From NCBI RefSeq assembly GCF_026571515.1, contig NW_026853286.1, positions 62,001-126,000 of the forward strand: a stretch of 64,000 bases of DNA. Reading direction: 5' to 3'. The position numbers and the translations under genes are program-made. Position 1 is the stretch's first letter. Each line of letters opens with the position of its first letter. The DNA is from Ruditapes philippinarum. Lineage: Eukaryota. Below the pieces are notes generated by a model. It had not been told where the DNA came from. It did not search any database and worked only from the letters and a program-made list of their open reading frames with translations. This document shows, one piece after another, positions 10,790-44,200 of the stretch.

Positions 10790-12457
10790 TCTCTTGAAAG
10801 TGGATTTCAACATATAGGCCAGATATATGTATTATGACTCTCAAATGTTGAGATTTCAACACAGACACAAGATATATGTAATATGTCTCTCAAGTGTTGG
10901 GATTTTAACATCTAGACATGATATTTCTATAATGACCCTCAAATGTTGGGATTTCAACATGTAGACCAGATATATGTATTATGTCTCTCAAGTGTTAAGA
11001 TTTAAACATATTGACACGATGTATGTATGAGGTCTCTGAAGTGTTGGGATTTCAACATGCAGACAAGATATATGTATTATATCTCTCAAGTGTTGGGATT
11101 TCAACACATACACATGATATATGTATTACGTCTATCAAGTCTTGGGATTTTAACGTCTAGACAAGATATTTCTATAATGTCCCTCAAGTGTTGGAATTTC
11201 AACATATACAGTAGACATGATATATGTATTATGTCTCTCAAGTGTTGGGATTTTAATGTGTAGACAAGATATTTCTATAATGACCCTCAAGTGTTGGGAT
11301 TTCAACATGAAGACAAGATATAATTATAATTAGTCTCAAATGTTGGGATTTTAACATCTAGACATGACATTTCTATAATGTCCCACAAGTGTTGGGATTT
11401 CAACATGTAAACAAGATATATGTATTATGTCTCTCAAGTCTTGGGATTTTAACGTCCAGACAAGATATTTCTATAATGTCCCTCAAGTGTTGGGATTTCA
11501 ACATATAAACAAGATATATGTATTATGTCTCTCAACTGTTGGGATTTTAACGTCTAAACATGATATTTCTATAATGACCCTCAAGTGTTGGGATTTCAAC
11601 ATATAAACAAGATATATGTATTATGTCACTCAAGTGTTGGGATTTCAACACATACACATGATATATGTATTATGTCTATCAAGTCCTGGGATTTTAACGT
11701 CTAGACAAGATATTTTTATAATGTCCCTCAAGTGTTGGGATATGAACATTTAAACATGATATATGTATTTTGTCTCTTAAGTATTGGGATTTTAATGTGT
11801 AGACAAGATATTTCTATAATGTTTCCCAATTGTTGGGATTTCAACAAATAGACAAGATATATGTATTATGTCTCTAAAGTGTTGGGATTTTAATGTGTAG
11901 ACAAAATATTTCTATAATGACCCTCAAGTGTTGGGATTTCAACATATAGACATGATATATGTATTATCTCTCTCAAGTGTTGGGATTTCAACATATAAAA
12001 AAGATATATGTATTATATCTCTCAAGTGTTGAGATTTAAACATATAGACATGATATTTCTATAAAGACCCTCAAGTGTTGGGATTTCAACATATAAACAA
12101 GATATATGTATTATGTCTCTCAAGTGTTGGGATTTTAACGCCTAAACAAGATATTTCTATAATGACCCTCAAGTGTTGGGATTTCAACATATAGACAAGA
12201 TATATGTATTATGTCTCTCAAGTGTCGGGATTTTAACGTCTAGACAAGATATTTCTATAATGTCCCTCAAGTGTTGGGATTTCAACAAATAGACAAGATA
12301 TATTATATATTAATATTATATAATTAACTATTATGTCTCTCAAATGTTGGATTTCAACATACCGGTATAGACATGATATATGTATTATGTCTCTCAAGTG
12401 TTGGGATTTTAACGTCTAGGCAAGATATTTCTTTAATGACCCTCAAGGATTGGGATG
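10790..12457 (+). repeat. 49-bp satellite array (two largely alternating subtypes, ~98-bp higher-order unit)
   Basis: Unit GACAAGATATATGTATTATGTCTCTCAAGTGTTGGGATTTCAACATATA alternates with the variant ..ATATTTCTATAATGACCCTCAAG..; spacing is 49 bp (e.g. 10891 to 10940). Confidence 0.95.
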
Positions 12458-12542
12458 TCCAACACTTGAGGGTCATTAAACATATATGTTTAGACATTAA
12501 AATCCCAACACTTCAAAGACATAATACATACATACATATATG
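12458..12542 (-). repeat. Same 49-bp satellite in reverse orientation (start of right arm, cut by the Ngaro insertion)
   Basis: CCAACACTTGAGGGTCATT..AATCCCAACACTTCAAAGACATAATACATA is the reverse complement of the unit. Confidence 0.85.
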
Positions 12543-12654
12543 TATTTTATAGATAGATAAAATATTTTATGTCATTGTTGAACAATCAGTAAATCAAACC
12601 GACTCTTAATGTAGGTTAAACTAGTAAATCAAACTGACTCTCAATGTATATTTG

Positions 12655-12782
12655 GCATTGGCCAATCTGAGAGCACCCTTAACGTCACGTGCTCTCTAAC
12701 AACCAATCAATCAACGGCATCGGCCTTTCTGGAAAAAATTTTAGAAGGGAAAAGCACGCTACATCTGCTCTGCTATAATTTT
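12655..12782 (+). promoter_or_regulatory. Candidate Pol II promoter in the A1 repeat
   Basis: Two CCAAT boxes (~12663, ~12703), an ACGTCACGTG CRE/E-box (12682) and TATA-like CTATAATT (12774), ~230 bp upstream of the SGNH ATG. Motif-level evidence only. Confidence 0.4.
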
Positions 12783-13002
12783 AAATTTACAAGTTTTCAC
12801 ACATTGTTACGTCTGGAAGTTAACGGTAAAACGTTACATTCATCCTTCTTTAACTTTTGCATATAAAATCGCTGCAACACGGATGTTCTTAATTTAGGAA
12901 ATTGGATGAGTTTGTATTTTCATTGTGCACAACGAGTGACGTCATCCTTTGAGGCTTTGTGTGATAACAGTGCCTTTGTGATATAACAGTGCCTGATTCA
13001 AT

Positions 13003-13611
13003 ATGGCGGCATCGATCCAGATATTTGGTCATTCCTTTGTTTCCCGTCTGAAATCTTTTCTACGGAATGAACCACATCTTCATTTTAACTTAAACTTAAC
13101 TTCGCTCCCGTTGGTACAATATTCGGGTTATTCAGGAGCTAAGGTGGAAACACTCCGGAGGAATTTTACGGACATTACGGATTTCGCTCCAGATATTGTT
13201 GTACTTTTGATTGGGACAAATGATTTATGTCAACCGGATGTTGACCATGTCAGTGTTTCCGCAGCAATATTAGACTTAATTGATAGTTTACTTTTCTTGG
13301 GAAACGTAAAAAGGGTGATCTGCTGCCAAATATTACACAGACGGCCTTCACAGTCAACACATCATCACGTTGATACAACATGGTTTAATAATCGTGTAGA
13401 TGAGACAAATTACATCTTGTCAACGAACATTCAAGCATTGCCCCATGGCCGTGCCACTTTCTGGCGTTTAAAGGGATTTTGGTCTCCAGAAGCGCAGTCT
13501 CAGGTCTTTGCATTAGATGGGGTACATTTGTCCGTCATGGGTCAAAAGAAGCTGTACTCTAACATCCGTGCTGCAGTGGTTGCCACTTTAAATAATGGTC
13601 TAGAGATATGA
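13003..13611 (+). CDS. SGNH/GDSL-family hydrolase (esterase) ORF of the Ngaro element, 202 aa, intact
   Basis: All four SGNH blocks are present: I FGHSF, II SGAKV, III IGTND, V DGVHL. Confidence 0.9.
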   Translation: MAASIQIFGHSFVSRLKSFLRNEPHLHFNLNLTSLPLVQYSGYSGAKVETLRRNFTDITDFAPDIVVLLIGTNDLCQPDVDHVSVSAAILDLIDSLLFLGNVKRVICCQILHRRPSQSTHHHVDTTWFNNRVDETNYILSTNIQALPHGRATFWRLKGFWSPEAQSQVFALDGVHLSVMGQKKLYSNIRAAVVATLNNGLEI

Positions 13612-14387
13612 AAGATATGTATTCCATTTCATTTTTCTGTTCTAGAAGTTTATGCTTGTAGGGGTCGTCCAAGTCACTTGGATGAACTCATTTTTCCATC
13701 TATTTTCACAAGCTGAATGACAAGTTTAAAGTTTACAAGATTTTACAAATTTGTTTATATGCATACAGTCACCTTTAATAAGGCGATACCTGTGTGATCT
13801 ATGCTTTTATAACTAATTAATAGATATACAGATTGGTATATAACTGTTTGATATAATTCATATTGTTACAGAACAAGCGGTATACAGCTTTTTGGGTAGT
13901 CATTTTCCATTTACATACAGTATTATTGTATAAACTTGTGTATATCTGGATATGTTCATATCCGGGAAAAATGTTCTAATATGTACAAGTTTTGAACACT
14001 TAACAAATTTAACCGCATCAATATTTAGTACTCAATTCAAGGTCAAGCTTGTTAACATATTAGATATATATTATAATGTGTATAATACAAAAATAGGCCT
14101 TTTACCTAAAGGTCAGTTTTGGGTTGGTGTTTCAACATTTGCTTTTCAAGCTCAATTTAATTTTTTTTTGGCTTTTAGCCAAATATACTTTTAGCCATTA
14201 TATTATATTTACTCACGGCCTTTTAAATTAGAGTACAACTTTCTGAAGGTTTTCATCTGAAGCACTTCTTAATCAGTCTGTAAGGTCTCAATTAGTAAAT
14301 TATTAAACAAATACCACGTCTCGACAAGGAAGGGCAGTCAATTAATTTCCGGAAATAACATGCTCGATTTTCCAGTCTAGACTGTGA

Positions 14388-14735
14388 AGTTCCAGACTAT
14401 GTTCTGATGTTACCATGCTTATATATCAATTGCCAGACTATGTTCTGATGTTCCAGACTATGTTCTGATGTTCCAGACTATGTTCTGATGTTCCAGACTA
14501 TTTTCTGATGTTCCAGACTACGTTCTGATGTTCCAGACTACGTTCTGATGTTCCAGACTATGTTTTTATGTTCCAGATTTTATTCTGGGGCTACAACATT
14601 TAGTAATGATTCTCCAGACTATGTTCTGATGTTCCAGACTATGTTCTGATGTATTTATATTTATCTATTGTTTCCAGAATTTTTTCTGATGACGCAGTAT
14701 TTTACTGTTTCCAGACTATGTCTGATGTTCCAGAT
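14388..14735 (+). repeat. 20-bp minisatellite (GTTCCAGACTATGTTCTGAT)n inside the Ngaro element
   Basis: Visible 20-bp periodicity at 14430-14580, with scattered copies to 14735. Confidence 0.9.
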
Positions 14736-14910
14736 TATTTGAATTTATTTATTATTTTGTTTGTCTGATGAAAAATAATATTTTCTACAGGATATAACCA
14801 GAAAAAATAGTGTTGGTTTACTCTGGCTTTTTTCTTTCAGATGAAACGCAATAAACGTTCGGCCACAGTGAGCCATTGTAATATGCCATGCTGTTCTAAT
14901 AGTAATAAAG

Positions 14911-16083
14911 ATGATGTACAGAGTCCGACGACGGCTCATTTGGAAAACAATGGGCAAACTCGCAGGAAAAAGACCAAAAATGATCAAAAGTCACTCAGGG
15001 GTAAAAAAATCCAGTCAAAGCTCAACACAGCAAGCTGCCCAACTAGCAGGGGGAGGTGATATAACTCATAAAAACAAACAGGCTGTAAGCAGATCACACC
15101 AGAAGAGGAAAAGGGGTACAGTCCCTCATCAGTCGCCATCTTCTAATTTCAATCAGGAGGAAAATGACATTCAAGTCCTGCAGGTATCGGAGGATGAAGA
15201 AACCTCAACCTCAGAAAAGTCAACATCCTCAGACGAGGAAGAGAGTGATAATGACGAAGGCTTTATAAATTTCAGGGACATAATATCGTCCCATTCAAAT
15301 TACATTACAGGTAATGCTCTAGAAATGACACAATTTGTCGAACCAGTCTCCACCCCCATTTCGCATTCCATACCAAAGTCGGTCATTAAAAAAATCCAAA
15401 CTAACAAGTTTGTGGACTTCTCTCGCCTTTTGCCAAACATGGCCTTGCCCCAAGCTGAAAATTATTCTTTAACATTAAATGCTAATAACCATTTAAGTTT
15501 GGTACCTAATTCATCTTCCAGAAAAATCCAGTCCATTGAAACATGGACAACAGCCTTTTTAAGGTTTTCAGCCATTTATGCTGCAACTTTTCCCCATGAA
15601 ATGCCTCAATTAATGAAATATGGGGAAATAGTGAGAGATTTGGCCCGTCGGCGTCAAGGTTTGGGATGGTCATTCTATGACAACCAATTTCGCATGTTTC
15701 GCGAAAGGGAGCTAATGCCATGGGACAGGATTCACACAGAATTCTGGGTCATGGCAACCTCTCAACTGGCACCCCATCATAATGGGTCATTTCAGAGTAA
15801 TCGGCCCTTTCGTACAGGGTCCAGTAGGCAATTCAAATCCGGTTATAGTTACAGGAAACCCTCTAAATTCCTTGAAAATACCTGCTGGACCTTCAACAGA
15901 CGAGGTTTATGTCGGGAACCCCGATGCTCCAGGCCTCATGTCTGTGGATTCTGTAGGGGGGCCCACTACGCCGGCCAATGCTCATTTACTAATAAAGACC
16001 AGGCCATTACCTCCAGTCCCTCCTTTAGTCAGGCCACAAAATCTCAAAACACTCCCACAGTCAACCGTATTCCCAAAAAATAA
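14911..16083 (+). CDS. Gag-like ORF of DIRS/Ngaro element (true start uncertain, possibly 14841 with a frameshift)
   Basis: Basic/acidic low-complexity N-terminus, DIRS-gag core (FVDFSRLL, IETWTTAFLRFSAIY, WSFYDNQFR) and C-terminal CCCH+CCHC fingers CWTFNRRGLCREPRCSRPHVCGFCRGAHYAGQC. Confidence 0.88.
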   Translation: MMYRVRRRLIWKTMGKLAGKRPKMIKSHSGVKKSSQSSTQQAAQLAGGGDITHKNKQAVSRSHQKRKRGTVPHQSPSSNFNQEENDIQVLQVSEDEETSTSEKSTSSDEEESDNDEGFINFRDIISSHSNYITGNALEMTQFVEPVSTPISHSIPKSVIKKIQTNKFVDFSRLLPNMALPQAENYSLTLNANNHLSLVPNSSSRKIQSIETWTTAFLRFSAIYAATFPHEMPQLMKYGEIVRDLARRRQGLGWSFYDNQFRMFRERELMPWDRIHTEFWVMATSQLAPHHNGSFQSNRPFRTGSSRQFKSGYSYRKPSKFLENTCWTFNRRGLCREPRCSRPHVCGFCRGAHYAGQCSFTNKDQAITSSPSFSQATKSQNTPTVNRIPKK

Positions 16084-17649
16084 GGTTGGCCAGGTTACTA
16101 CACCAGTTAAGGTTTCTGTTTTGTCTACATACTTGCAAGGTTACCCAAACCGGAAATACTTAATTAATGGTTTCACAATAGGTTTTAAGCTAGGTTACAT
16201 TGGTCCTCGTCAATCTACATCATGCTCCAATCTAAAGTCCTGTTCAGAACTTCCCGATGTGGTTTTACAAAAGCTTCAAGCAGAAATCTACGCAAAACGC
16301 ATTAAAGGTCCTTTTCATGAAAGGCCTTTTCCTAATTTCCATATCAGCCCAATTGGCTTAGTTCCAAAGAAAACTGTCGGCGACTTTCGTCTTATTCACC
16401 ATTTAAGCCATCCAAAAGGTTCATCAATAAACGACCACATAGACCCAAACCTAGCTACGGTTAAATATGCCTCTTTTGATGATGCGGTAGCAACTCTGTT
16501 AAAATATGGCCCTGGTTGTTTCTTTGCAAAGACTGATATTCACAATGCTTTCAGGTTAATACCTCGGATCATGAGCTTTTAGGGTTTAGCTTTCAAGGTA
16601 AATATTACTATGATACATGCCTCCCGATGGGGTCATCTAGTTCATGTTCCATTTTCGAAGCTTTTAGCACTTCTCTTCAATGGATTGCTACCAACAAGTT
16701 AAAAATTCCTCACATTGTCCACATATTGGACGATTTTTCTTTCTTTGGTCATGATTTTAAGGCTTGTCAAGGTCATCTAGATCAATTTCTTAACCTCTGT
16801 AAAGTCATGGGTGTCCCAATAAAACAAGAGAAAACCGAGTCAGCCCGTCGAGTCATCGTATTCATGGGCTTAGAACTTGACTCCATAACTATGGAGGCTC
16901 GTCTTCCCCAAGATAAGCTATCTAAGTTAAGGTCTCTATTATTATATCATACAGGTCGTAAAAAAAATAACACTTAAGGATTTACAATCTTTAATTGGTC
17001 TTCTGAAATTTTTGCTGTTCAGTAGTCATACCAGGCCGTTGTTTCTTACGGCGTTTAATCAATTTAACAGTAAAAGTTTCAAAACCTACACATAGGATAA
17101 CTTTGTCAGCCGATAGTCGGCGGGATCTCAAAGCTTGGTTTTTGTTTACCCAACATTTTAATGGCAAAAATGTCCTTCTTAAACAACGGTGGTTATCAAG
17201 TCCCTCATTACATTTACACACTGATGCTGCTGGGTCACTTGGATATGGAGCTATTTTTAACAATAGTTGGTTTTATGGGGAATGGCCAAACCATATGACA
17301 TCATTCCACATCACATTTAAAGAACTTTTTCCTATAGTTTTAGCATTGGAAATCTGGGGTACAATTTTAAAAAACAAATGTATTATCTTACACTCAGATA
17401 ATTATGCTGTAGTTCATATTATCAACAAAACAATCTTGCAAAGATTCTGTTGTTATGAAGTTAGTTCGGCGCTTAGTTTTAACATGCATGCAACATAATA
17501 TTTTGATACAGGCTAAACATATACCAGGAAAGGATAATGTTTTACCAGATCTCCTTTCACGTTTACAGGTCAAACAGTTCCGCCTTTTGGCACCACAAAT
17601 GGACGACCAACCTACCAAAATACCAGAACAGTTGCTGCTTCTTCACTGA
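15782..17649 (+). pseudogene. Reverse transcriptase-RNase H ORF of Ngaro element, frameshifted (pieces 15782-16582, 16627-16977, 17103-17498, 17455-17649)
   Basis: RT motifs ISPIGLVPKK, FRLIHHLS, KTDIHNAFR, LPMGSSSS, HILDDF, FMGLELDS. RNase H motifs HTDAAGSLGYG, ITFKELFPI, HSDNYAVV, HIPGKDNVLPDLLSR. Overlaps the gag 3' end as is typical for DIRS elements. Confidence 0.9.
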
Positions 17650-18591
17650 ACTCTTCGGTCTTACACATACTATTAAAATCCCTGGCACCGTCCACAAGAA
17701 ACAGTTACCGAAATGCTTTCAAACAGTATAGCCGTTTTCATAATACTTACTACACTAAGTTCAAAGGCTCCCTTCTTCCTATTCCAACTTATAAAATGGC
17801 ACAGTTCATTGCAGTATGCCACTGATAGGCCCGGCCTTTAAACCGGCCGACTATATCAACTTGGATATCAGCTTTGTCCTATACTTCATCGTCTTCACAG
17901 GTTAAGAAATCCTTCTAAGGCATTTTCATTATTAAGAAACTGTTATACAGTATTAGGAAAAACTAAGGGTCTCGGACAAACGTCACGGTTTCACTATTCC
18001 TTTGCTTAGGTCATTAATCCAATCTTTGAGCAAAATTACTGCAAATCCATTTACCAAGCTCCTACTGAAAACGATTGTACCTGGTGGCTTTCTATGCCTT
18101 GCTTCGTCTTGGAGAAATTTCAGTCACCAAAACGGGAAAAGGCCAATATTGTTAAACTTGAAATGTTCATTTTTCAATATGATAAGTCTCGGCTCAATAG
18201 TGCCTCCATCCATCTCACTCATTTTAAGCATTCAAAAGGCCAGACAGCCAAAAATTTGTGCTGAGTAGGTCAAAACACAGACAACTTTGTCCTGTACGCA
18301 CATTAGCTTAATTATGTCAGTCAGATCTCCTCGTGTAATGGCCCGTTATTCCGCTTTAGTACGTGGTCACCCGGTACAGCATCTTTCTTTAGGCGTATGC
18401 TAAAACGCTGTCTAGTAGAAAGCGACTAGATCCTACCAAATATACATCTCACCTCTTTTCGAATCGGAGGGCAACCTTAGCACATGACCTGAATTTCTCT
18501 AATACACAAATCCAACAGTTAGGCCGTTGGTCTTCACAAGCATATACCAAAATATCTGCGGCCCAGCCTTTCTAAGGGACCAATCAAATAA
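17650..18591 (+). pseudogene. Tyrosine recombinase ORF of Ngaro element, many indels
   Basis: Reading across frames gives LLKSLAPSTRNSYRNAFKQY, YLVAFYALLRLGEI (catalytic R), HFKHSK, YTSH(S)FRIGG (HxxR) and IQQLGRWSSQAY..YLRP (GRW, catalytic Y). Confidence 0.85.
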
Positions 18592-18720
18592 GGTCCTTTG
18601 TAACAAATTCAAGGATTTCACTTTGGGTACAGACAAGTTCAATACTAATTGTCAAATTAAAAGTATGGCTAGGGCCTATGCATAGTCCACTCTATCCTTA
18701 TTGTACACTTGATAATATTG

Positions 18721-19912
18721 TTGACTGTCTGAGGCAGCAAAGTTTATTGTACAATATACATTTTAGATTGTTATTGTAGTACAACCGGGTTTTACGCGGT
18801 GATATTTTCATACTCAATGACGGTATAGGCATCTACATACTACATAAGTGTTACAATTTCATGTGTCATTACTAGAGCATTATATATATTTATACATCTT
18901 ACTATACATAATTTTATTAAGGAGTGGAGCTCCATGTATGATCTTTATGATAAGCTGCAATTCCCTCAACTGTCTGAGGCAGTGAAGACTTGGAGCACAT
19001 GCTTTGAATAAAATTGTCGCATGATTATATTTAATTATTAAGGCAAAATAGATATCTAAAACTTCTCTCGTATAGATTAAGGAATGTCACTTTACGACTT
19101 ATTTTAACTACGGACTACAGAGGCAGCGAGCCCTAAATTGTCACGTCTTTAATTTTTCTTATTGCCGATATAAAGCTAGTTTCACTCGAACTGTCTGAGG
19201 CAGCGAGCAAACGGTTCAGTTTCAGTAATTTATGGATTAATTGCCTTATTTTAACTTAGACGTCTTGAAACAGCGAGCTATTTGTCACATATTTAAATTT
19301 TATTGATGTTACATTATTACAAAATTGGTCTCATGTTTGGTTGTATTTTATTTTGCCTGATTTTCACTCGATGTCTTTGAGGCAGTGAGCTATTTGTCAC
19401 ATTGTTGTTCATTATATAATACTTACTTCCACTCGACTGTCTGAGGCAGCGAGCAAATTGTCTCAGGTTTTGTAATTTTATTATGTTCATGATATAGTGC
19501 CTTATTTCACTCGACTGTCTGAGGCAGTGAGCTATTTGTCACATGTTTGAAATTTGCATTATGTACATCTTTTGATACTTATTTTTACTTGACTGTCCGA
19601 GGCAGCGAACAAAATGTCTCATATTTGGTAATTTGATTATGTTCATGATATAGTGCCTTATTTCACTCGACTGTCTGAGGCAGCGAGCTATTTGTCACAT
19701 GTTTGAAATTTTATTATGTTCATATTATGATACTTATTTTCACTCAACTGTCTGAGGCAGTGAGCAAATTGTCTTCTGTTTGGTAATTTTAGTATGTTCT
19801 TGATATAGTACCTTATTTCACTCGACTGTCTGAGGCAGTGAGCCATTTGTCACATTTTGAAATTTTATTATGTTCATATAAACTTAATTTCACTGACTTC
19901 GAGAGCGAGCTA
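18721..19912 (+). repeat. Array of ~13 conserved 22-nt hairpins (CTCG-A-CTGTC-TGA-GGCAG-CGAG); last six within alternating ~78-bp units
   Basis: Copies at 18721, 18966, ~19108, 19185, ~19255, 19367, 19432, 19510, 19588, 19666, 19743, 19821, ~19892. Confidence 0.85.
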
Positions 19913-21100
19913 GTGTTTTTCTTGAATTTTTAAAATGTCATTGCCTTTTCTCCAGTTTTATCCTTTTCTTTAAACTTGCTCGGGTTTGGGGCAGCGAAGA
20001 GTATTCCTGTTAGAATTTTTATTTTTTTCAAATTTCATACCCCCGGGGTTTTAAAAAGGTTTTCGATATTTAAATTTTTTTCAAAGTCAATTTTTATATG
20101 CACTCTTATTTTTAAGGGATGGGGACTTATAAAAAATTTTTATCTTTTTCCCCGTTATCGGGGGCACCAGTCCAACAGTTTCCGGGCTTTATTGGGGGTA
20201 TTTGTTCACCCGATTTTTGAAAAATTTATATGTAGTAATTTTGTTTTTTTGGCAAAATAAATTGCCCGTTTCAAATCAATCATGATTTTTTTTAAATTTC
20301 CCCATACACGTCCAATCGGCTTCCCATAAAAAAGAGCCATAAATTTTTTTAGATAGATAAAAATTTTTTGTATGTTTAACAATCAGAAAACAAAAGCTCT
20401 TTAATGTAGGGTTAAACTATAAATCAAAATACTCCAATGTATATTTTCAGCCAAACTGAGGACCCTTAACCACGTGCCTCAAAAACCAAACAATCAACGG
20501 GATCGGCCCTTTTTGGAAAAATTTTTGAAGGGGAAAAACACGCACATTTTTGCTCTGCTTTAATTTTTCCCCCACCTCCCGTTTTCCTCCTCCGCTATGT
20601 TTTTCTCAAGGGTTACCAATAGTCAATATTAATTTTGAAACGATGTTTTGTATTAATTTTAAAATAATTTTTGACAGTTATGCTGTTCCTTTATTAACTA
20701 GAGTCTTAAAATAATTTTTGACAGATTACTGTTCCTTCATTAACTTAGATAAGTATGTTATTGTTGTTGTTGTTTATGTATATTATTGTTAGGCGGTATT
20801 TGTTCACCCAGATATGGGAAAATTATTTTATATGTATGTAATTATGTTGTTTTCGGCAAAATAAATTTGCCCGTTTTGGCGGTATTTGTTCACCCAGATA
20901 TGGGAAAATTATTTTATATGTATGTAATTATGTTGTTTTCGGCAAAATAAATTTGCCCGTTTTCAATCAATCATGATTTTGCTTATGAATTTCCCCATAC
21001 ACAGTCCACAGGGTCAGTGCTTCTCTATAAACAGATGCACATAAATATATATATATATATATAAAACAAAAAACACAGTCCATGAGTTAACTTATTTAAT

Positions 21101-21141
21101 TATTTGCCAACCGGTTTCTCTTATGATCATCAGGGCAAATA
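21101..21141 (-). ncRNA. Minimal type I hammerhead ribozyme in Penelope pseudo-LTR
   Basis: Minus strand reads TATTTGCC-CTGATGA-TC(ATAA)GA-GAAAC(CG)GTT-GGCAAATA: 8-bp stem I, intact core, 2-bp stem II and palindromic ACCGGT stem III. Confidence 0.88.
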
Positions 21142-21208
21142 TGACGTCGTCGCATAGTAACGACGTTTTAGTGTACACATGTGTACGCATAATCTAAAAA
21201 TAGTAACG

Positions 21209-22409
21209 TCATAATATAGTATTAAGTTTTGGATTAGAAACATCAATAAAATAGCGTTCTTTACATAACCTAGCTGAAACGTTTTTACTGTGAAATTTAT
21301 AAAATGGGAAAATACAAAATTTCGGGTCTTTTTTAGAGCATTTATCTAAATGTTCACTTAAAGGTAATTGTCTTGTTGATGGGTCTCTTATCTGCTGAGC
21401 ATGAACAGTTTTTCTGTTTCTGAGTTTGTCGCCTGTTTGGCCTATGTAAAATTCTTTGCAGCCGTTGCAAACTAAAACATATAAAACATTTTCAACAGTA
21501 CAGTCCATATTTTCTTTTGTATGAAATATTTTATCCTGAAGTTTTAAAGAATATCCTTCTATTAAATAATCACAGAGGCCACACCTCTGTTCGTTGCATT
21601 TTTTAACACAGGGTATTATATTGTTGTCTTTAAATTCTGAACTTATTAAAATGCTTTTTAAATTTGGTAATTGTCTTTTGCATTTTATTATGTTGGTGTT
21701 GCTTATTATCTTTTTCATTTTTTCATCATGTGTCAGAATTTCCATGTTTGTTTTAATTATGCCAAACAATTCTCTGATTTTCGGGTTACATGTTGAAATA
21801 TATGGAAGAATTTTGTTTTTTGATTGCTCTTTAACTTGAAGTAAGGTGGTTCGAGGAATCTCCAAAGCTTTTTTAATACCAGTTTTTATAAGTTGAATTG
21901 GAAATTTTCTTTTAATTAAAGTGATGGCGAGTTCCTTAAGTCTAATCTTTAGTATTTCCTTATCCGATACAATCGAGCATATTCTCCTTGCTAGCGAAAA
22001 CGGGATATTTGTTTTAATGTGTTTTGGATGACACGATTTAAAATTTAGATATTGTTTAGAATCGGTACTTTTAAAATATACATCAGTGACTATATATGTT
22101 CGTTTCTTAATAACCATTACATCTAAAAACGGACGTCTGTCTGTACTTTGTTGTTTCTTAAATTGTATATCTTTATGAAGTGAATTAAGTATTTTTTCAA
22201 AATATAATAAATCCGTTAGAGATCTTTGCCAAAATATAAAACAATCATCCAAAAATCTTGTCCAGTTACATTGAATATAATTAGCAAAATCTTCACCTTT
22301 CTGTTTGATAATTTCTGAATACAATTTTTCTTCTAAATAACCTAGTACAAGTGTTGCATATGTTGGAGCAACCTTTGTCCCCATGGCTGTACCTTTTACC
22401 TGTTTATAA
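21209..22409 (-). CDS. Penelope RT/GIY-YIG polyprotein, 5'-truncated open frame
   Basis: Same motifs as the element above. The first ~13 codons of the ORF-track entry are antisense read-through of the inverted piece. Confidence 0.85.
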
Positions 22410-22410
22410 C

Positions 22411-22907
22411 AAAACCAAGTACATTTTACGGACTTCCTAAAATTCATAAAAGTAAGATTATTCCAGAAATATGCAAATCAAAATCCTCTGAATATATTGA
22501 AATACTTAATCCGGAAGACTTAACATTTAGACCTATAGTTGCTGGTCCTCAATGTGAAACTAGCCATTTAAGTTCTTTTCTTGAAAATTTATTAAAACCT
22601 ATTGTGGGAAAAGTGAAAAGTTACTTGAGAGATGATATTGATTTTCTGAATATCATACCAGAGAAAGTTGAAGAAAGTACAACTTTAGTTTCATTTGACA
22701 TAGTTAGTTTGTACACAAATATACCCCATAAACTAGGTTTAGAAGCCATTTCATTTTGGTTAAATAAGTACCCAGAATTAATTACATCTCGTTTTGATAA
22801 GAGCTTTATATTAAATGGCCTTGAAATAATTTTACAAAATAATATTTTTTCATTTAATAATCAATATTATAAACAGGTAAAAGGTACAGCCATGGGGGCA
22901 AAGGTTG
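22411..22907 (+). mobile_element. Penelope RT N-half, inverted relative to the 3' part
   Basis: Plus frame reads KPSTFYGLPKIHK..FRPIVAGP..SYLRDDIDFL..LVSFDIVSLYTNIPH..YKQVKGTAMGAKV. Confidence 0.9.
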
Positions 22908-23630
22908 ACACTGACAAATGGATTATGTGTACTTTATGTCCAAATAAATGGCATTTTTCATGTACAGGTGAACCGACGAAGTTGAGTTAGTGATAAAAAA
23001 CAACTTTGTTTGCCAGTTTTGTGTCCAGTTTGATAATTGATGGTCAATGATTGTGCGTATATGTATGTACTTAATACGCAATATATATACTTCAAATCAT
23101 TTCAAAAGCAATGAACAGGTAACGTTCTTATCAATCAAATATATCCGTGCATGAACTGTATAATTACGAACCTTTTCAGAACTTAAAAGAAACGTGATTT
23201 TTACTTCGAAAATGATTTGTTTTATTTATTATATTTGAACATCGGCCCTCGAATTCTTTCATTAGTTGAATGTCATTTTATTGTCTTATACTGAAAATTG
23301 GAATTATATTTAATGATTGAATATGGTTTATAAAATCTTAATCTAATTGCACAGTAAAACAATAAATGTTTCATGTTCTCTTTTCAATTTTTAAAAACAA
23401 ATTGGAGTATGTCGAAATTAGACGAAACATGTCGAAATTATACGACGATATCTATGTTCGTAAGAGAGATATTGCAAATCAAACAAGACATTCTTGTTCG
23501 TTTACATAATCAAGAAGTATTCCCAAAATGTTAGTTTCACATTCGGGTTAAAATCGGATCTTGTAATATCGACACCTAAACATTTGTGAGCAAAATTCTC
23601 TTAAAGTGTCGAAATTACCCGATGTTACTC
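22908..23630 (+). mobile_element. 3' fragment of a Tc1/mariner-pogo-like DNA transposon (PHD-finger C-terminus + right TIR)
   Basis: WIMCTLCPNKWHFSCTG...FVCQFC PHD-like remnant, repeated GTCGAAATTA motifs (23411, 23432, 23608) and an end ..GAAATTACCCGATGTTACTC|TA. Confidence 0.55.
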
Positions 23631-23795: not shown

Positions 23796-24960
23796 TAAAA
23801 TCCCAACATCATAATACAAATATCTTATCCAGACTTTCAAATCCCAACACTTGAGAGACATAGTACATATATCTTGTCTATATGTTGAAATCCCAACACT
23901 TGAGAGACATAATACATATATATCTTGTCTATATGTTGAAATCCCAACACTTGGGGTTCATACTTGAGAGACATAGTACATTAATCTTGTCTATATGTTG
24001 AAATCCCAACACTTGAGGGTCATTATACAAATATCTTGTGTAGACATTAAAATCCCAACACTTGAGAGACATAATACATATATCTTGTCTATGTGTTGAA
24101 ATAACAACATTTGAGAGACATAGTACATATATTTTGTCTTTATGTTGAAATCCCCACACTTGAGAGACAAAATACATATATCTTGTCTATATGTTGAAAA
24201 TCCAACACTTGAGGGTCATAATACAAAGATCTTATCCAGACGTTAAAATCCCAACACTTGAGAGACATAATACATTTATCTTGTCTATATGTTGAAATCC
24301 CAACACTTGAGGGCTAATATACAAATATTTTGTCTAGACATTAAAATCTCATTGCTTGAGAGACGTAGTACATATATCTTGTCTATATGTTGAAATCCCA
24401 ACACTTGAGAGACATAATACATATATCTTGTCTATATGTTAAAATCCCAACACTTGGGGTTCATACTACAAACATCTTATCCAGACGTGAAAATTCCAAC
24501 ACTTGAGAGACAAAATACATACATTTTGTCTCTGTGTTGAAATAACAACATTTGAGAGACATAGTACATATATCTTGTCTATATGTTGAAATCCCAACAT
24601 TTGAGACTCATAATACATATATCTTGTCTACATGTTGAAAATCCAACACTTGAGGGTCATAATACAAATATCTTATCCAGACGTTGAAATCCCAACACTT
24701 GAGAGACATAATACATATATCTTGTCTATATGTTGAAATCCCAACACTTGAGGGTCATTATACAAATATCTTATATAGACGTTAAAATCCCAACGCTTGA
24801 AAGACATAATACATATATCATGTCTATATGTTGAAATCCCAACACTTGAGAGTCATAATACATATATTCTGTCGATATGGCGAAATCCTAACACTTGAGA
24901 GTGATAAAAATATCTACTTTGTTTTTATGTTGAAATAAAAACTTTGAGAGTCATAATACA
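23795..24960 (-). repeat. 49-bp satellite, reverse orientation (continuation of right arm)
   Basis: Units TGTTGAAATCCCAACACTTGAGAGACATAATACATATATCTTGTCTATA are the reverse complement of the 10790-12457 units. Confidence 0.95.
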
Positions 24961-24974
24961 TGTACTAACTAGTA

Positions 24975-30750: not shown

Positions 30751-32491
30751 ATGGAAGTTACTGGACGTAAAGAGTCTTCTAGGTCTGCTATATTTTGTCG
30801 TCCATGTCAGCGTGATGATGAAACAGTACACGCGGAGGGTTATTGTGAGACTTGTAATGAATTTATTTGCTCATCATGCATTACGGCACACCGGAAGTTG
30901 GCAAGCACAAAAAGTCACATGATTAAATCCAGAGATGAGATGTCGACATATCAGGCTGAAAGCGATCCATGCACTGAACTCTGTGATGTTCATGTAAACG
31001 AAATAGTGAAAGTTTTATTGCCAGCAGCACGACAGCGTTTGTTGTGGAGATTGTATGGTACTTAATCATACCTCTTGCAATGTTTAAAGCTTGTTTCAGA
31101 TGTTTCAAGTAACTATGACAACAGCGACGATCTTTTGCGAATCAAACCCCCACAAAAGAAGAAACTTGATTTTTTTTTCAAATCTCAGAAAGAAACATTG
31201 CATCGTGCGAAAAAGAAATAAAAGGCAGTCTGGAAACAGCTGAAAAAATAAAAAACCAATACCATATCAGAGAAATTAAACGATTCCGTAAAGAAATTGA
31301 AAGACTACCTGAACAAAATGGAAGAAGACCTGTTACAAAAGGTTGATGAAATGAGATGCCAGCGATTTCTCAACACAGGCGAAAGCTTCAGGATCAATGT
31401 CCAAGGCATTGGCTCGTGACAAATTGAAGATTTTGAAAATAAACTAGATAAGTGTAAAGACAAGGTCAATTCTTTGTTTGTGGCATCTAAAAGCGTTAGA
31501 GAAAAGTCTTCATAATTGTCTGAAAAAAAATGAATGAGGAAATTTCATCCAAAAGTAAAATAAAACATTCAAATTCATACCCTCTGAATATATCAAACAA
31601 TTTGAAAAACACGCAACGAATGCCTTGGCAAAATTAATATACAAGTGAAGAGATTCGCGGGACAATGCAAGGGTTACTTTTATTGGCACGAGAACATGCT
31701 TTGTACAGAAACTAAACAATAAAGCGAAACATGACAGAGACTGTTTCATAAAGGATATGGCAGTCATGTCTGAAGAATGAAATTCTGCGTGCAGATTGGA
31801 AAAAACAGCTCATTGAAGGTTTTAAATCATAGAAAAAAGGCAAAATCACATCAAACACTGCAGTTGTCAACTTCTCCCGCTGGAGTCACTACAATTACCC
31901 CCTCATCAGCTGCCAGCCACTTTACCAATGAAAAAACAAAATCTTGTTCCTGACAACACAAAGTGGATTGACTAAAAGTCATAAAATATCTGTTCGATAT
32001 GGATGCGCAGGGAATAGATCATCGCGATGGTATATTGGCTGTTACTTTTGCGAACCTCCTCTGTTATGGTGATGGACACGAAAGGTCAAATTCTCCTGAA
32101 TCTCGTGGATAAAAAATCGACTGAAACTTTCCCACGATATATATCCCTGAGTAACAACAATAAGAGTATGCTAGTGTCTGACTTGGATAACGAAGTCGTG
32201 TATGAAATTAACCTCAAAGGAGAGCTGCAAGCTACAAATAAAAGTGTAAAGATGGGCAAACCTCTAGGCATAACAGTTACCAACTGTGGATGTGCTGTTG
32301 TTTGTTATCGAGGTAAAAGCGAAAAAGCCGGACTGATTGTACCTGAAACAAGGATAATACTGCCTTTCTCCCTGGATAATGTACTTATACCATGCTCTAT
32401 CCTGATTTCCGAAGAACAACGCAAGTTGTTTATCAGTGAACATGAAACATCAGCAGACTGCAATTTCATAAAAATGTTTTACAACAAGTAA
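30751..32491 (+). pseudogene. RING-less TRIM-like gene copy 1 (B-box1, B-box2, coiled coil, beta-propeller); frameshifted as assembled
   Basis: Near-identical to 38166-39854 at both ends. Many 1-nt indels, mostly A-run expansions, between 31010 and 32060 may be sequencing error. Confidence 0.8.
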
Positions 32492-37172: not shown

Positions 37173-38165
37173 CTTATTATTACTCATTGGCCAACTACAA
37201 GAACCATGTTTTCATCTGCTTGTTGGCAAAAAGTACAGTTATAGTGATATTGTTAAATTTGTATGAAAGTCAAAATATTTCTTTGTTTACAGTTTGCTAC
37301 TTTTAAGACAAATTATTTCACATTTATGTCTTTTTCTTCACGTATTTTCACGTAACAAGTATCTTATATTCCCTAAAACCATTATTGAAACATTATAAAA
37401 TTCATGTTTGCCATTTGCTAAAAAAGTAAAAATATATTTGAGCGGTCACATGAAATTTCCAACATAGTGGTCAACTTTGACATTTTACTTTTTTCAAAGA
37501 TTATCAAAATGCATTCTTTCCATTTTATATAAAGCAGGATGGGATTTCAACAACTTAAAGCGTCTTACGCGCACATCCACTACACTTTACAATTGTCTCT
37601 TAATCATTTACTCTTTTTTTTGAGGGTCCTTTATATAAAACAATGATATACATGTGATATGAAATCTTCCTTCTTCTATTTGCATTAAAGTGTATATTCC
37701 AATTTATCTTCGTATCAGCAACGGCAGAAATACTAAATAATAAATTAGCAATCAAAAGAATACATGTAACAATTGCTTAATTATTTTAAGTAAGTAAGCC
37801 CTGGGAGTGTTTTCTGTTGCAAGGTCAATATGCCAAGTGCCGTTTGATTATTCCTTGAAATTTTGTTCAAGAGATTTACAAAAAGAATTTCACCACAATA
37901 CATTTGCTAACAATAGAGCACTTGTCAATGTCTGTGGTTAAATCTCAAGTACACCATCATGCACATACATATATAGTTATATCTTATATTAGCTGAACGG
38001 CATTCTTCGCTATTCACTGTTTGAAGAAGGGGACACGTAATTAAAGCACATATTTGCTAAACAAAAAAATCTTAACTATTCTTTATTTTTATGGATGTGT
38101 TTACTCTAACGATACTGCTGAGACAATTAAAACAGGTTAATAAGTAAATAAAATAAACAATAGGA

Positions 38166-39854
38166 ATGGAAGTTGCTGGACGTAATGAGTCTTCCAGGCC
38201 TGCTATATTGTGTCGTCCATGTCAGCGTGATGATGAAACAGTTCATGCGGAGGGTTATTGTGAGGCTTGTAAAGAATTTCTATGCTCATCATGCATTTCG
38301 GCACATCGGAAGTTGGTCATCACAAAAAGTCACATGATTAAATCCAGAGATGAAATGCCGACATATCAGGCTGAAAGCGATCCATGCACTGAGCTCTGTG
38401 ATGTTCATAAAAACGAAATAGTAAAGTTTTATTGCCAGCAGCACGACAGCGTTGGTTGTGGAGATTGTATGGTACTTCAACATACCTCTTGCAATGTAAA
38501 GCTTGTTTCGGATGTTTCAAGTAACTATGACAACAGCGGCGATCTTTTGGGAATCAAACACAGAATTGATCATCTTAGAAAGAACATTGCATCGTGCGAA
38601 AAAGAAATAAAAGGCAGTCTGGAAACAGCTGAAAAAATAAAAACCAATACCATCAGAGAAATTAAACGTTTCCGTAAAGAAATTGAAGACTACCTGAACA
38701 AAATTGAAGAAGATCTGTTACAAAAGGTTGATAAGATGAGTGCTAGCGATTTCTCAACACAGCGAAAGCTTCAGGATCAATGCAAGGCATTGGCTCGTGA
38801 CATTGAAGAATTTCAAAATAAACTAGATAAGTGTAAAGACAAGGTCAATTCTTTGTTTGTGGCATCTAAAAGCGTTAGAGAAAGACTTCATAAGTGTCAA
38901 AAAATGAATGAGGAAATTTCATCCAAAAGTAAAATAAACACATTCAAATTCATACCCTCTGAATATATCAACAATTTGAAAACACGCAACGAATGCCTTG
39001 GCAATCTTAATATACAAGTGAAGAGATTCGCGGGACAATGCAAGGGTACTTTTATTGGCACGAGGACATGCTTTGTACAGAAACTAAGCATTAAAGCGAA
39101 ACATGACAGAGACTGTCACATAATTGGTATGGCAGCCATATCTGAAGATGAAATTCTGTGTGCAGATTGGAACAACAGCTCATTGAAGGTTTTAAATCAT
39201 AGAGAAGGCAAAATCACATCAACATTGCAGTTGGAAACTATTCCCGCTGGAGTCACAAAAATTACCCCCTCGTTAGCTGCAGCCATTTTACCAATCAAAG
39301 GCAAAATCTTGTTCCTGACAACACAAAGTGGATTGATTAAAAGTCATAAAACATCTGTTCGACATGCATGCATGGGAATAGATCATCGCGATGGTATAAT
39401 GGCTGTTACTTTTTGGAATCCTCCCGCTGTTCAGGTGATGGACACGAAAGGTCAAATTCTCCTTGATCTCGTGGATACAAGTATACTGGAGTATCCGCAA
39501 TTTATATCCCTGACTAACAATAATAAGAGTATTCTAGTGTCAGACTTGGGTACCAAAGCCGTGTATGAATTTAACCTCAAGGGAGAGCTGCAAGCTACAA
39601 ATAAAAGTGTAAAGATGGGCAAACCGGCAGGCATAACAGTTACCAACTGTGGATGTGCTGTTGTTTGTTATATAGGTAATAGCGATAAAGCCGGACTGAT
39701 TGTACCTGAAACAAGGAAAATACTGCCTTTCTCCCTGGATAATGTGATACTAACATTGTCTATCCTGATTTCTGAAGAACAACGCAAGTTGTTTATCAGT
39801 GAACATGAAACATCAAAAGACTGCAATTTCATAAAAATGTTTGACTACAAGTAA
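38166..39854 (+). CDS. RING-less TRIM-like protein: tandem B-box zinc fingers, coiled coil, degenerate NHL-like beta-propeller; 562 aa, single coding exon
   Basis: B-box1 CRPC..AEGYCEACKEFLCSSCISAHRKL..SH and B-box2 CDVH..FYCQQHDSVGCGDC..HTSC, a heptad-rich helix, then propeller blades (CADWNNSSLKV, PAGVT, CMGID, VSDLG, PAGIT). Likely UTR-intron acceptor AACAG|G ~30 nt upstream. Confidence 0.92.
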   Translation: MEVAGRNESSRPAILCRPCQRDDETVHAEGYCEACKEFLCSSCISAHRKLVITKSHMIKSRDEMPTYQAESDPCTELCDVHKNEIVKFYCQQHDSVGCGDCMVLQHTSCNVKLVSDVSSNYDNSGDLLGIKHRIDHLRKNIASCEKEIKGSLETAEKIKTNTIREIKRFRKEIEDYLNKIEEDLLQKVDKMSASDFSTQRKLQDQCKALARDIEEFQNKLDKCKDKVNSLFVASKSVRERLHKCQKMNEEISSKSKINTFKFIPSEYINNLKTRNECLGNLNIQVKRFAGQCKGTFIGTRTCFVQKLSIKAKHDRDCHIIGMAAISEDEILCADWNNSSLKVLNHREGKITSTLQLETIPAGVTKITPSLAAAILPIKGKILFLTTQSGLIKSHKTSVRHACMGIDHRDGIMAVTFWNPPAVQVMDTKGQILLDLVDTSILEYPQFISLTNNNKSILVSDLGTKAVYEFNLKGELQATNKSVKMGKPAGITVTNCGCAVVCYIGNSDKAGLIVPETRKILPFSLDNVILTLSILISEEQRKLFISEHETSKDCNFIKMFDYK

Positions 39855-41278
39855 AGTGATTTTTATCTCATAAAAAGTTAGGTTTTTTTTTATAATAAAC
39901 AATGTATTAAATATTCTTTCGGTCATTTTTAGGTTATTGTATTTTGTCTTTATGTAGAATATTTAAGACAGTCTCACAATGTGCAAGGTTATAACATATG
40001 AAAGAAACAAAGAACAATTTATATGTTATGATTTATACATTTAAACAGTACTGTACATGTGTTACGGTTGCATATTTCTGTTAAGACATAAATACTTCAT
40101 TTTCAAGTTAATTATCTTCCTAACTTCATGTCATGTAATTAGTTTCGTATTAGAAACAATTATGTGAAAAACTATAGATATGTTTTTTCATAAAACAATT
40201 GAATGACGTCGACGAATGTATGTAAAAAGAACCCACAAAGTTCAACCAACACTTGTCAAATAAATAAAAGATAATAATTTGTTTGTCTACATTTTTTGTG
40301 TTAGTAAGTTGATGAGATAGTTTAGTTTAGTTAGTTAGTTACTTAGTTACTTATTTAGTTATGTAAATCTTTGTTGAATCAACAACTTGAGGATAAATAA
40401 GCCATTGTTTATGGAACGTGCCAGGAATATTGCTCATGGCAATCTGATGACCTTATTATGTTGTGCGCAGACTTAATTATCTCGTTCACACCACACAGTA
40501 ACTCGTGCGCACGACTTGATTACCTTTGTGCATCACTTAGTAACTCGTGCGCACGACATAGTGTCTCGTGCTCACCACTTAATTATATCGTACACAGTCT
40601 CGTGCTCACCACTTAATTATGTCGTACACACGACTAAGTAACTCATGTGCACGACATAATGTCTTTTGCGCATGACTTAATTATCTCATGCGCAAGAATA
40701 GTAAATAGTGAGCTCGACAGTATATCGTGTGCACGACTTAATTATTTTGTGCAAACGGCTTGAAGATCTCGTGAGCACGATTTAGTAATTCCTGCTTATG
40801 ACATAATATAATACATAAAAAAACACACGTCACTTCTGTGTCACCGACACAACATATGTACCAAATATTAAAAACAATATTTTAATGTATGAACGACACA
40901 CAAAATCGCCTTTAGGACGCAAGCCAGGTTGTCATTCTCACGAATGATCTTTGATTTATACAGAATTATACAGATTTTATTTTCGTTCGATTGTGAAGGA
41001 AGCAATGAACTTATAGACACACGCTACATTCCATTCCTGGACCCAACCACTATTGAGCAATGAATGTAAGATTTCTTGCTCAAAGAAACAACGGCTTGCC
41101 TCTGACGGGATTTGAACTAAACATCCTCAGAATGAGTTATCTTTAAATACAAAGGAAAAATGAGAAATACATGACGTACTTGTGAAAAATTGAAACCAAT
41201 CTGACATTGTTATGAAGATGAAATATTAATAATGGTGTGAAAACTGTAAAGAGAGAACCATGCACTTATACATGTATT

Positions 41279-44200
41279 GGAATTATAAGTGAAAATGATG
41301 TTATATGTTTAAGTGAGTCTTGGACGAATAAAAGCTCAGTTATTGATCTTAATGGATATGACAAACCGATTCATTCTTATAGACGATTTCAGCATAGACG
41401 TGCTAAGCGCTCCAGCGGTGGACTTATCATTTATATAAAAAATTCCATAAGAAAAGGTGTTAAAATGGTTAAAAATGATATTGATTGTCTGGTATGGTTG
41501 AAATTTGATAAATCGTTCTTTCACATAGAAAATGACATTTATTTAGCAGTTGTATACATTGCACCAGAACATTCCCCGATTCATGATAGGTACGATGAAG
41601 ATATTTATAGGCACATTGAAAATGATATAAATATATTTAGCAATAAAGGAAAAATATTCAATTACTGGAGACACTAATTCGCGCATTGGCCAGAAAGTGA
41701 TTATATATAACATATGATAGACATATAGGACAAACAGATATTTATACGATTGACCCATATTTGCCACGGACTTCTTGTGATTTTGGTTCAAATCGCTTTG
41801 GCGATCGTTTACTTGACCTTTGTAAATCAACCAATTTTCGGGTAGTTAATGGTAGATTGTATAGAGATAAAGGCATAGGCAAATTTACCTGTATGACATA
41901 TAACGGGGAAAGCGTGGTCGATTATCTGGTGACGTCACAGTTAAACTTTCAAGATTTAGCCGATTTTTATGTGCATGATTTCAATGAATTTTCTAACCAT
42001 GCCCCGATATCATTTTCATTCAAAGTTAACTCGATTCCAAGTACGATAAAAAAGGAGCCAACTATTTCTTATAAATGGAAACCATCACAAAGGGATGCAT
42101 TTATAAATGACGTATCACATGATATACAAAACATAGAAACTATTTTACAAGAGCAAATAAACAACGGAGAATAGTACCGATACATTAACTAAGACTTTCA
42201 CGGACTTTTTAAACGATAAAGGCAAAAACAGTACTTTGAAACTAAATCAGTTGCACGAAATAATTATTTTGTGCATAATGACTCAAATCTGAAGAAATGG
42301 TTTAGTGATGAATGTAAATTAAAGAGAGATAGTTATTTACAGGCAATTGATGACTATAATTTAGAAAAAAACGAAAGCACTAGAAATATCCTGCATGAAA
42401 AGAAACGTGATTACAAAAACACTTGTAAAAAGCATAAAAGAAGCTTTAATAAAAATGTTGGTAAAAAAATGAATGATATGAGAAGAAAAAATCCACGAGA
42501 GTTTTGGAAAACATTTAAAAAGAAATCTTCAAATCCAAATGGTGAAAATATAACTGTTGAAGAATTTTATGATCATTTCAAAAACTTGTCTTCTAATACA
42601 ATGCTTAGTGAAAATATGGAATGTAATGACTTTTTGTCGCAATTTGATACAGCCCCAGACTCCTATGGAAGTTCCTTCGCTGAACTGGATCAACCAATCA
42701 CAAAAGAGGAAATAATATCCGCCACCAAGAAACTCGGTTGTAATAAGGCGTGTTCATTAGACAATATCCTATATGAATATTTCAAAGAAAGTGTATTTGT
42801 AACGGCACGTTCAATTGAATTATTGTTTAACCACATATTAAATGCAAAAGTGTTTCCTCGTAGCTGGTCAACAGGAGTAATCATACCAATATATAAAAAA
42901 GGTGATTCGTCTGACCCGAATAATTATAGAGGAATAACATTGATCAGCTGTTTTGCTAAATTGTTTACAGTTATTATAAATGAACGATTGAAACGTTGGG
43001 CTGATAACACGGAAACTTTGACAGACGCACAATTCGGTTTTAAACCGAATTACGGTACTATTGATCCTATCTTTATATTAAATGCTTTAATAAAGAGACA
43101 ATTTATAACGAAAAATAAGCTCTTTCGTTGTTTTGTGGATTATAAAAAGGCGTATGACTTAATCGACAGAAATTACCTTTGGTATAAGCTCATAAAGACC
43201 GGGGTGGACGGAAAACTGTTCTCTATTATACGGTCAATGTACGAAGATGTTAAACTATGTGTAAGACATTTAAATAGTTTGTCAGATTTTTTCAGCTGTG
43301 ATGTAGGTCTCTTTCAAGGGGAGATCACCTCGCCGGTCATGTTCTTTATATTTTTGAATGATATTGAAATGTTTTTTACAAGAAGACCCAAATGCTTGCA
43401 TTACACTAGACCAGATATCTATATATTTGTTGTTGTTTGCGGAGGATGCCGTTCTTTTTTTCTGAATCCAAAGAACGTCAACTAAACAATATAAATAATT
43501 TACAATTGTATTGCAAAAAATGGAATTTAACTGTAAATGTTGATAAAACTAAAATTGTTGTTTTTAGAAAAGGTGGGCAATTAAGTAGAGAGTTCAAATG
43601 GTCATATGATGGAATTGATATAGAAATTGTTCAAAACTTCAATTATTTAGGAATTGTATTTTCTAGTGGCGGTTCATTTGTACCAGCAACAAATACCCTT
43701 AGTGGAAAAGGCTTAAGGGCAATGAACTCTTTACTTAACATTACAAAAGAGTTAGATATATCTATAGAAATAATGTTCAATTTGTTCGATGCGTATGTTT
43801 TATCTATTTTGAATTATAATTGTGAAGTATGGGGCTTTAATAAAGCAGAAAATATTGAACGTTTGCAAAGAAAATTTTGTAAATGGTTATTAAATGTTAA
43901 AATGTCAACAATACTCTATCATTGTATTCTGAACTAGGTAGATTTCCTCTGTATATTGAAAGATATGTTAGGATAGCAAAATATTGGCTAAAGTTACACG
44001 GCGATAAGAGTCAAAACTGTATTTTAACAACTATTCTAAGTTCTCAAAGAAATGATATATCAAATAACTCAAATGTTGTCAACTGGTCATCAAAAGTTCG
44101 AGACATGTTACAAAACGCTGGATTTGCCGAAGTATGGTTATATCCAGAATCGGTTAATATTAAAATTTTTATACCAGTATTCAGATCACGTCTCAGGGAT

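Follow-up and report, generated by a model that had tools for sequence, protein, structure and literature searches.

Repeated bulged hairpins behind the recombinase gene of a wide lineage of Ngaro retrotransposons

Introduction

An array of small hairpins in a Ngaro element of the Manila clam, Ruditapes philippinarum, bears on the question of how retrotransposons with a tyrosine recombinase select and prime their RNA. The element lies in a 64-kb stretch of genomic DNA, here called the window, and positions are counted from its first letter. A first-pass annotation, made from the letters of the window alone, had described a repeated hairpin with a bulged A and had proposed a multivalent array for Gag binding, packaging or processing. 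It had added the caveat that the changes seen in the stems are also those that CpG decay produces. The locus raises two questions: is the hairpin a selected structure, and what might it do?

The element that carries the array

In the Ngaro superfamily of the DIRS order, the reading frames stand between split direct repeats in the layout A1-ORFs-B1-A2-B2 (available text of PMC9210276 and PMC8547959). The clam element has the same layout, enclosing genes in the order SGNH-Gag-RT/RH-YR, where YR is the tyrosine recombinase (Table 1). The YR directly follows the RNase H (RH), and no Pfam match to a methylase domain was found after the RNase H in the ORFs of the window or in the intact RT/RH ORF of the related locus L013. 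Split direct repeats, a Gag-like ORF, RT/RH and YR in that order and the absence of a methylase are the marks of Ngaro, and the first pass had assigned the element correctly. Together with an SGNH ORF, they are shared with the superfamily as far as the available text describes it.

An intact natural protein of this YR family, P0044, gives a weak match to Phage_integrase (E=2.3e-4). The protein cluster holds two NCBI proteins of Ruditapes philippinarum together with close relatives from Dreissena, Mya and Mercenaria. The element is present in 20 of the 24 public runs listed.

The SGNH ORF stands 5' of Gag in the window and in the long relatives, which share the order SGNH-Gag-RT-RH-YR, whereas in amphibian Ngaro elements it comes after the YR (PMC9210276, available text). 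The 5' position is seen throughout the lineage (window 12997-13611 and loci L005-L069). In collapsed assemblies, such as L046, the ORF appears after the YR because A1 equals A2. Self-BLAST of 22 related loci found no full set of A and B repeats; a few of these loci have end overlaps or an SGNH behind the YR, as expected from collapsed repeats.

The sequence of the window is not free of errors. Three independent contig sets share the same differences from it at 19101-19116, which implies errors in the window, and the hairpin copy near 19109 is therefore probably less decayed than it looks. Since many small differences are common to the three sets, the frameshifts and the decay in the element are partly assembly error. 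Almost no public contigs match 20094-20549 at 85% likeness. The low identity between A1 and A2 and between B1 and B2 coincides with this poor-quality stretch; the part of B1 at 20192-20314 aligns with 20876-21008 of B2 at 84%.

Table 1. Features of the Ngaro element and its hairpin array in the window
Feature	Position	Strand	Remarks
A1 repeat, 5' end of the element	12545..12782	+	80% identical to 20345-20567
SGNH/GDSL hydrolase ORF, 5' of Gag	12997..13611	+	Pfam PF13472, E=2.9e-9
ORF1 (Gag-like), terminal CCCH plus CCHC zinc fingers from residue 338	14872..16083	+	motif alignment
RT and RNase H, frameshifted in the window	15716..17649	+	Pfam RVT_1, RT_RNaseH
Tyrosine recombinase, with frameshifts that are in part, at least, assembly error	17538..18592	+	
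Hairpin 1	18720..18741	+	isolated, AT-rich flanks; rank 3 in model R2
Hairpin 2	18965..18986	+	isolated; rank 28 of 28 in model R2
Decayed-looking copy	19109..19130	+	8/22 mismatches; probably touched by sequence errors of the window
Hairpin 3	19185..19207	+	2-nt bulge; rank 9 in model R2
Two decayed copies	19256..19390	+	at about 19256 and 19368
Six alternating 78-bp units	19406..19879	+	one intact hairpin each
Intact hairpins of the units	19432, 19510, 19588, 19666, 19743, 19821	+	six of the top seven of model R2
Two decayed copies	19888..20000	+	in a low-quality stretch
B1 repeat	20192..20345	+	AATAAA at 20256 in a short hairpin; 84% to B2
A2 repeat	20345..20567	+	80% identical to A1
B2 repeat	20789..21045	+	86-bp duplication; AATAAA at 20860 and 20946

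Several other repeats surround the element. A Penelope-like element (RT plus GIY-YIG) lies on the - strand at 21209-22990, directly after B2, and contains an inverted piece at 22346-22990. Another short inverted piece, at 12376-12533, abuts A1. The Ngaro and Penelope-like elements are flanked by 49-bp satellite arrays in opposite orientation (10802-12540 and 23810-24961). Between SGNH and Gag, the window has a 20-bp tandem array (14385-14738), and unrelated tandem arrays occupy the same interval in 4 of 14 relatives checked. Translations also show three B-box/TRIM-like gene copies (32018-32491, 38157-39854 and 45429-47192) and, at 41222-44635, a LINE-like element whose frames encode an endonuclease and an RT.

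The array in the window

The array spans 18720-20000, between the recombinase stop and repeat B1, starting about 130 nt past the stop and ending before B1. Nine copies of a 14-nt core lie on the + strand with no more than one mismatch (18724, 18969, 19190, 19436, 19514, 19592, 19670, 19747 and 19825). When up to three mismatches are allowed, the window contains 16 matches, compared with 1.5 expected from shuffles. Five weaker hairpin copies lie near 19109, 19256, 19368, 19888 and 19977, so that the earlier count of about 13 copies corresponds to nine intact plus four or five decayed ones. Neither the core pattern nor the covariance model R2 (see below) found hairpin copies elsewhere in the window. 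A coding role for the array was considered and rejected, the longest stop-free stretch being 89 amino acids.

The first two copies had been described as sitting in unrelated flanks, with the hairpin alone conserved. This is what the comparison gives: between hairpins 1-2 and the tandem copies, the core is 99% identical and the flanks 30%. The alternating 78-bp units of the earlier description also reappear, as a tandem region of period 156 with 87% matches. Across the six units, identity is 91% in the 22-nt hairpin and 70% in the spacers. These units arose recently, by local expansion within an array of scattered hairpins that is itself older.

The lower-stem variants listed in the first pass are all present, within one base of where they had been placed. 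Its caveat was also well founded, since every lower-stem change inside the window is of the CpG type. Four variant states are seen, and five of the eight possible CpG-decay states would keep both pairs anyway. A test in which stem arms are exchanged between copies gives p 0.03-0.08 in the window alone, which is not significant by itself. Because all of the changes are CpG-type, the window alone proves little and cannot settle whether the structure is selected.

The array in related elements

Relatives were collected by a YR alignment search of metagenome contigs, and the best 80 of 371 confirmed stretches were used. The 80 loci and the window form 52 families, of which nine were excluded for having less than 350 nt of 3' sequence, leaving 43. 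A fixed descriptor found repeated hairpins with a bulge on the 5' side (at least two like copies) right after the YR in 19 of the 43 families; the same descriptor fitted none of the 43 on the reverse strand and none in the YR gene. Its mirror form, with the bulge on the 3' side, also fits six of the 43. A shuffle control of the descriptor is weak, as shuffling destroys the repeats themselves.

With anchors picked by hand from outputs that allowed G.U pairs, 32 families with 139 distinct copies were obtained, and 31 of the 32 have at least two copies. The arrays hold 2-10 copies, upstream of B1-A2-B2. In these families, the first copy follows the YR at a median distance of 89 nt, and the median spacing is 98 nt. 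About nine families with at least 400 nt of 3' sequence lack the array (L018, L037, L049, L054, L059, L063, L065, L070 and L080), so it is not universal. Its absence from related elements, which the first pass had said would speak against the idea, is contradicted by the repeated hairpins in many families.

The conserved architecture consists of a variable lower stem, a bulge of 1-2 nt on the 5' side, a 4-bp upper stem and a loop of 4-6 nt. This modifies the first description. The hairpin itself stands, while the proposed CUGUC-UGA-GGCAG form, a 5-bp stem with a triloop, gives way to the 4-bp upper stem and larger loop. Likewise, the bulged A never varies among the copies of the window and of three close relatives, nor do one G-C pair and a U.G pair, whereas the bulge has 2 nt in most of the distant families (103 of all 139 copies have 2 nt and 31 have 1 nt). 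The loop ends in G in 119 of the 139 copies. The core sequence of the window is absent from the 3' ends of all relatives examined.

In a YR tree built from the relatives found, the window falls in a clade (support 100/99) with bivalve proteins and loci L001-L004, and all four metagenome loci of this clade have repeated hairpins. The types of loop and bulge follow the tree and differ strongly between clades. A distant clade is probably cnidarian, judging from a single record: the YR of L013 shares 66% identity with a cluster that includes a coral protein (Porites evermanni). One locus, L030, loses the array about 70 nt after the YR, where unrelated sequence begins; its sisters L028, L031 and L042 keep six hairpins. 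Searches of viral contigs by pattern or protein gave nothing, and phage records gave only chance matches of 40 nt.

Repeat B contains a second conserved feature, a G-rich box able to pair with a C-run and followed by AATAAA. It was seen in both B repeats of the window (20192-20345 and 20789-21045) and in L003, L004, L010, L016, L017, L026, L035 and L073; in the window, L003 and L004 the AATAAA lies within a short hairpin. Forty families were examined for the order of box and array, and most are undecided; in all nine that show both, the box comes after the last hairpin copy. A first pattern for this poly(A) box was found in 8 of 36.

Covariation

If the hairpin is selected for its shape, the two arms of a copy should pair better with each other than with the arms of other copies. 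In the arm-swap test, copies were picked by sequence only, and the arms of the lower stem were exchanged within each family. Of 38 families, 26 showed better pairing of own arms and 6 of swapped arms (p=1e-4). A stricter version, which chose registers and filtered families by the pairing of swapped arms, left 21 families and gave no significant difference (p=0.43 and 0.09); its lower stems had 25 G.U against 22 A.C pairs. Because this filter drops the families that covary most, it was replaced by a test whose register does not change under permutation and which applies no family filter. Over all 43 families with a repeat, this test counted 4.47 vs 4.11 Watson-Crick pairs of 8, with 31 families vs 7 in favour of own arms (p=5e-5), and the result holds without the window.

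The pairs themselves can be followed in 17 copies from the window, L001, L003 and L004, which were chosen with the shape of the window's hairpin in mind. RNAalifold returns the same structure for them, 97.8% of the cells pair, and six of the eight pairs change on both sides. These changes include transversions, such as U-A to A-U and G-C to U-A. When the register is slid, only 24-52% pair. Another alignment, A5, with 33 copies, has a covariation score of 0.52 vs 0.17, but it was preselected for three lower pairs and those columns are circular.

The first pass had suggested a covariance model from related species as a check. Model R2 was made from the nine non-window copies of L001, L003 and L004 and run over both strands of the 64 kb. 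Seven hairpins of the window come first among its 28 hits (E 0.005-0.3); the eighth ranks ninth and the ninth comes last. Model R1, built on the distant clade, recovers none of the hairpins of the window, which indicates that across clades the shape is shared and not the letters. In the loci, R1 has 126 hits under E 0.1, all on the + strand within 800 nt after the YR; as these are mostly training copies or near-identical loci, they were not counted as independent.

The hairpin is a selected structure and not a product of CpG decay, since related elements carry it with compensatory changes, transversions included. The covariation, the greater conservation of hairpins than of spacers in the units and the recurrence in relatives are each the opposite of what the first pass had named as grounds for rejecting its proposal. 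By the comparison of these sequences, the array is real and selected, a cis-acting hairpin array of a wide Ngaro lineage.

Which molecule folds

G.U pairs on one strand are A.C mismatches on the other and can indicate which strand forms the hairpin. On the + strand of the 139 copies, there are 57 G.U vs 14 A.C at lower pairs 1-4 and 49 vs 4 at upper pairs 1-3, against a background G.U share of 0.62. G.U exceeds A.C at every lower position from 1 to 6 and at upper positions 1, 2 and 4. With families as the unit, the count is 19 vs 6 in favour of G.U (p=0.11 against background), and given this value and the hand-picked anchors, the strand signal is suggestive. At least three stem variants occur in public contigs; the three listed (18970, 19526 and 19839) all keep pairing on the + strand.

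Folding energy picks no strand, and the antisense strand folds three of the upper pairs as well or better (0.54-0.99). In their local context, five of the nine sense hairpins pair with a probability of only 0.25-0.44. The YR and the array are covered at similar depth by contigs from two runs, one listed as RNA and the other guessed to be RNA, and one contig piece spans 17700-19675, though contigs are not proof of transcription. Another run, X24, recorded as RNA-Seq and the one run of raw reads, has 89 of them on 17700-21100; their loose ends coincide with GATC sites, the pattern of DNA libraries made by proximity ligation. As the run behaves like GATC-ligated DNA, it was left unused for strand, ends and expression. 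The G.U excess and the position of the array before a poly(A)-like signal suggest that the array likely folds in the sense RNA of the element.

Possible functions

The reading that we favour is a tentative one, with a chance close to even. The conserved hairpins, kept in shape without their sequence, would fold in the sense RNA between the YR stop and the first terminal repeat. There the Gag-like ORF1 protein, with its zinc fingers, would find several places to dock, and its binding would select the element's own RNA for copying. Repetition of the hairpin would give cooperative loading, and the lineage-specific loop would give self-recognition among co-resident families.

ORF1 is the first candidate for the binder because it keeps a CCCH-CCHC pair, and for Gag proteins and some YR elements the CCHC box is reported to be the finger that packages RNA (PMC6681497, available text). 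All eight metal ligands of the pair are invariant in 9 of 9 ORF1 proteins, eight of which were picked by the pattern or are the window's own. The core of ORF1 (15298-16002) gives a confident model (pLDDT 79), with a helical domain followed by the finger pair. No capsid fold was matched by Foldseek at E<=0.001 (best VIA Z 4.7), and no solved relative of ORF1 was found by sequence or fold. Since there is no capsid match, "packaging" may mean a ribonucleoprotein and not a particle. In the available text of PMC8547959, the Gag role of ORF1 rests on synteny.

A further step, possible but less probable than the docking itself, is that marine-invertebrate Ngaro elements use a lineage-coded RNA address, in which the shape of the hairpins is common to the group and the letters of loop and bulge are read by the cognate CCCH-CCHC ORF1. 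Self-recognition through the loop has its model in the tails of LINEs, in which the stem is recognised in a general way and the loop in a specific one.

These same tails suggest another model, which we consider unlikely: the RT, or its flanking region, would recognise the hairpins to select its template or to start cDNA synthesis. In UnaL2 and ZfL2-1/2 of the L2 clade, a single 3' stem-loop is bound by ORF2 for target-primed synthesis (PMC1636434 and PMC4176376, available text). The clam array resembles it as a small, bulged stem-loop in 3' untranslated sequence; the combination of a general stem with a lineage-specific loop also occurs in zebrafish LINEs (PMC4176376), and the bulge is required in UnaL2 (PMC1636434). 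A model of this kind would suit an order for which the available text of PMC7192593, including its account of DIRS-1, knows no primer. The LINE tail, however, is one stem-loop at the 3' end of the RNA, whereas here a YR element carries 2-10 copies upstream of B1-A2-B2, and priming inside the array would presumably leave the terminal repeats uncopied. Slightly less probable is a role for the host, one of whose RNA-binding proteins would bind the hairpins and control the stability, localisation or translation of the element's RNA. A 3' untranslated position and repetition would suit host regulatory elements, and most loops end in G. This fits poorly with loop and bulge letters that track the element's YR tree, and Rfam holds no match for the window or eight relatives.

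The remaining explanations place the hairpin in DNA or deny it a function. An improbable one is that the hairpins act in single-stranded cDNA, as sites for the recombinase, for second-strand synthesis or for circle formation. The cDNA of DIRS-1 is largely single-stranded (PMC7192593, available text), the antisense strand folds three upper pairs well, and the strand test by family is weak. Yet G.U exceeds A.C on the + strand, opposite to first-strand cDNA, and the bulge lies on the 5' side of that strand (19 vs 0 families). Least probable by far is the amplification in the tail of a neutral sequence, repeated in tandem and subject to CpG decay, or of a captured Helentron-type (HINE) end. It would account for the CpG-type changes in the window and for the six copies that are plain tandem units, and the 5-nt left arm of one oyster HINE 3' palindrome equals the window's upper arm (PMC7492417 supplement, in the part available). 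Against it stand the recurrence of one shape at one position in many families whose spacers are unrelated, the transversion swaps, the confinement of the copies to this one place in the window, the lack of a HINE-type microsatellite at 18000-21500 and the coverage of the array at YR depth in the family sequence of four public runs (three contig sets). The relatives largely refute this explanation, which is unlikely on present sequence evidence.

Relation to known RNA structures

Retroviral packaging signals are dissimilar hairpins in the 5' leader that are bound by the zinc knuckles of Gag. The clam array is like them in having several short hairpins, G-rich loops and a CCHC finger in a Gag-like protein. 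It is unlike them in that its hairpins are like copies in the 3' part of the element, and in that the fingers of ORF1 form a CCCH-CCHC pair, in a protein where no capsid fold was detected. The operators of MS2 and PP7 and the HIV TAR element also consist of a lower stem, a 5' bulge, a short upper stem and a small loop; the likeness to the clam hairpin is one of shape only, and the element revealed no protein related to their binders.

Rfam contains no match to the array (E<=5) or to the 3' regions of the eight relatives (E<=1). No description of such an array was found in the literature searched; original Ngaro papers, Repbase and bioRxiv supplements may mention such repeats. For Ngaro, the available text of PMC9210276 and PMC8547959 does not mention a hairpin array, nor does that of PMC3783388 describe one. 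The array is apparently undescribed.

Significance

Binding and deletion tests gain a concrete target in a small hairpin that is repeated, covaries and keeps its position in dozens of families. The differences between lineages amount to a natural swap experiment, and the array can be used to recognise the 3' part of these elements by its structure. If the reading as a lineage-coded RNA address is true, the DIRS order would have its first signal for packaging or template selection. The lineages would then hold a natural library of orthogonal hairpin-protein pairs comparable to those of MS2 and PP7.
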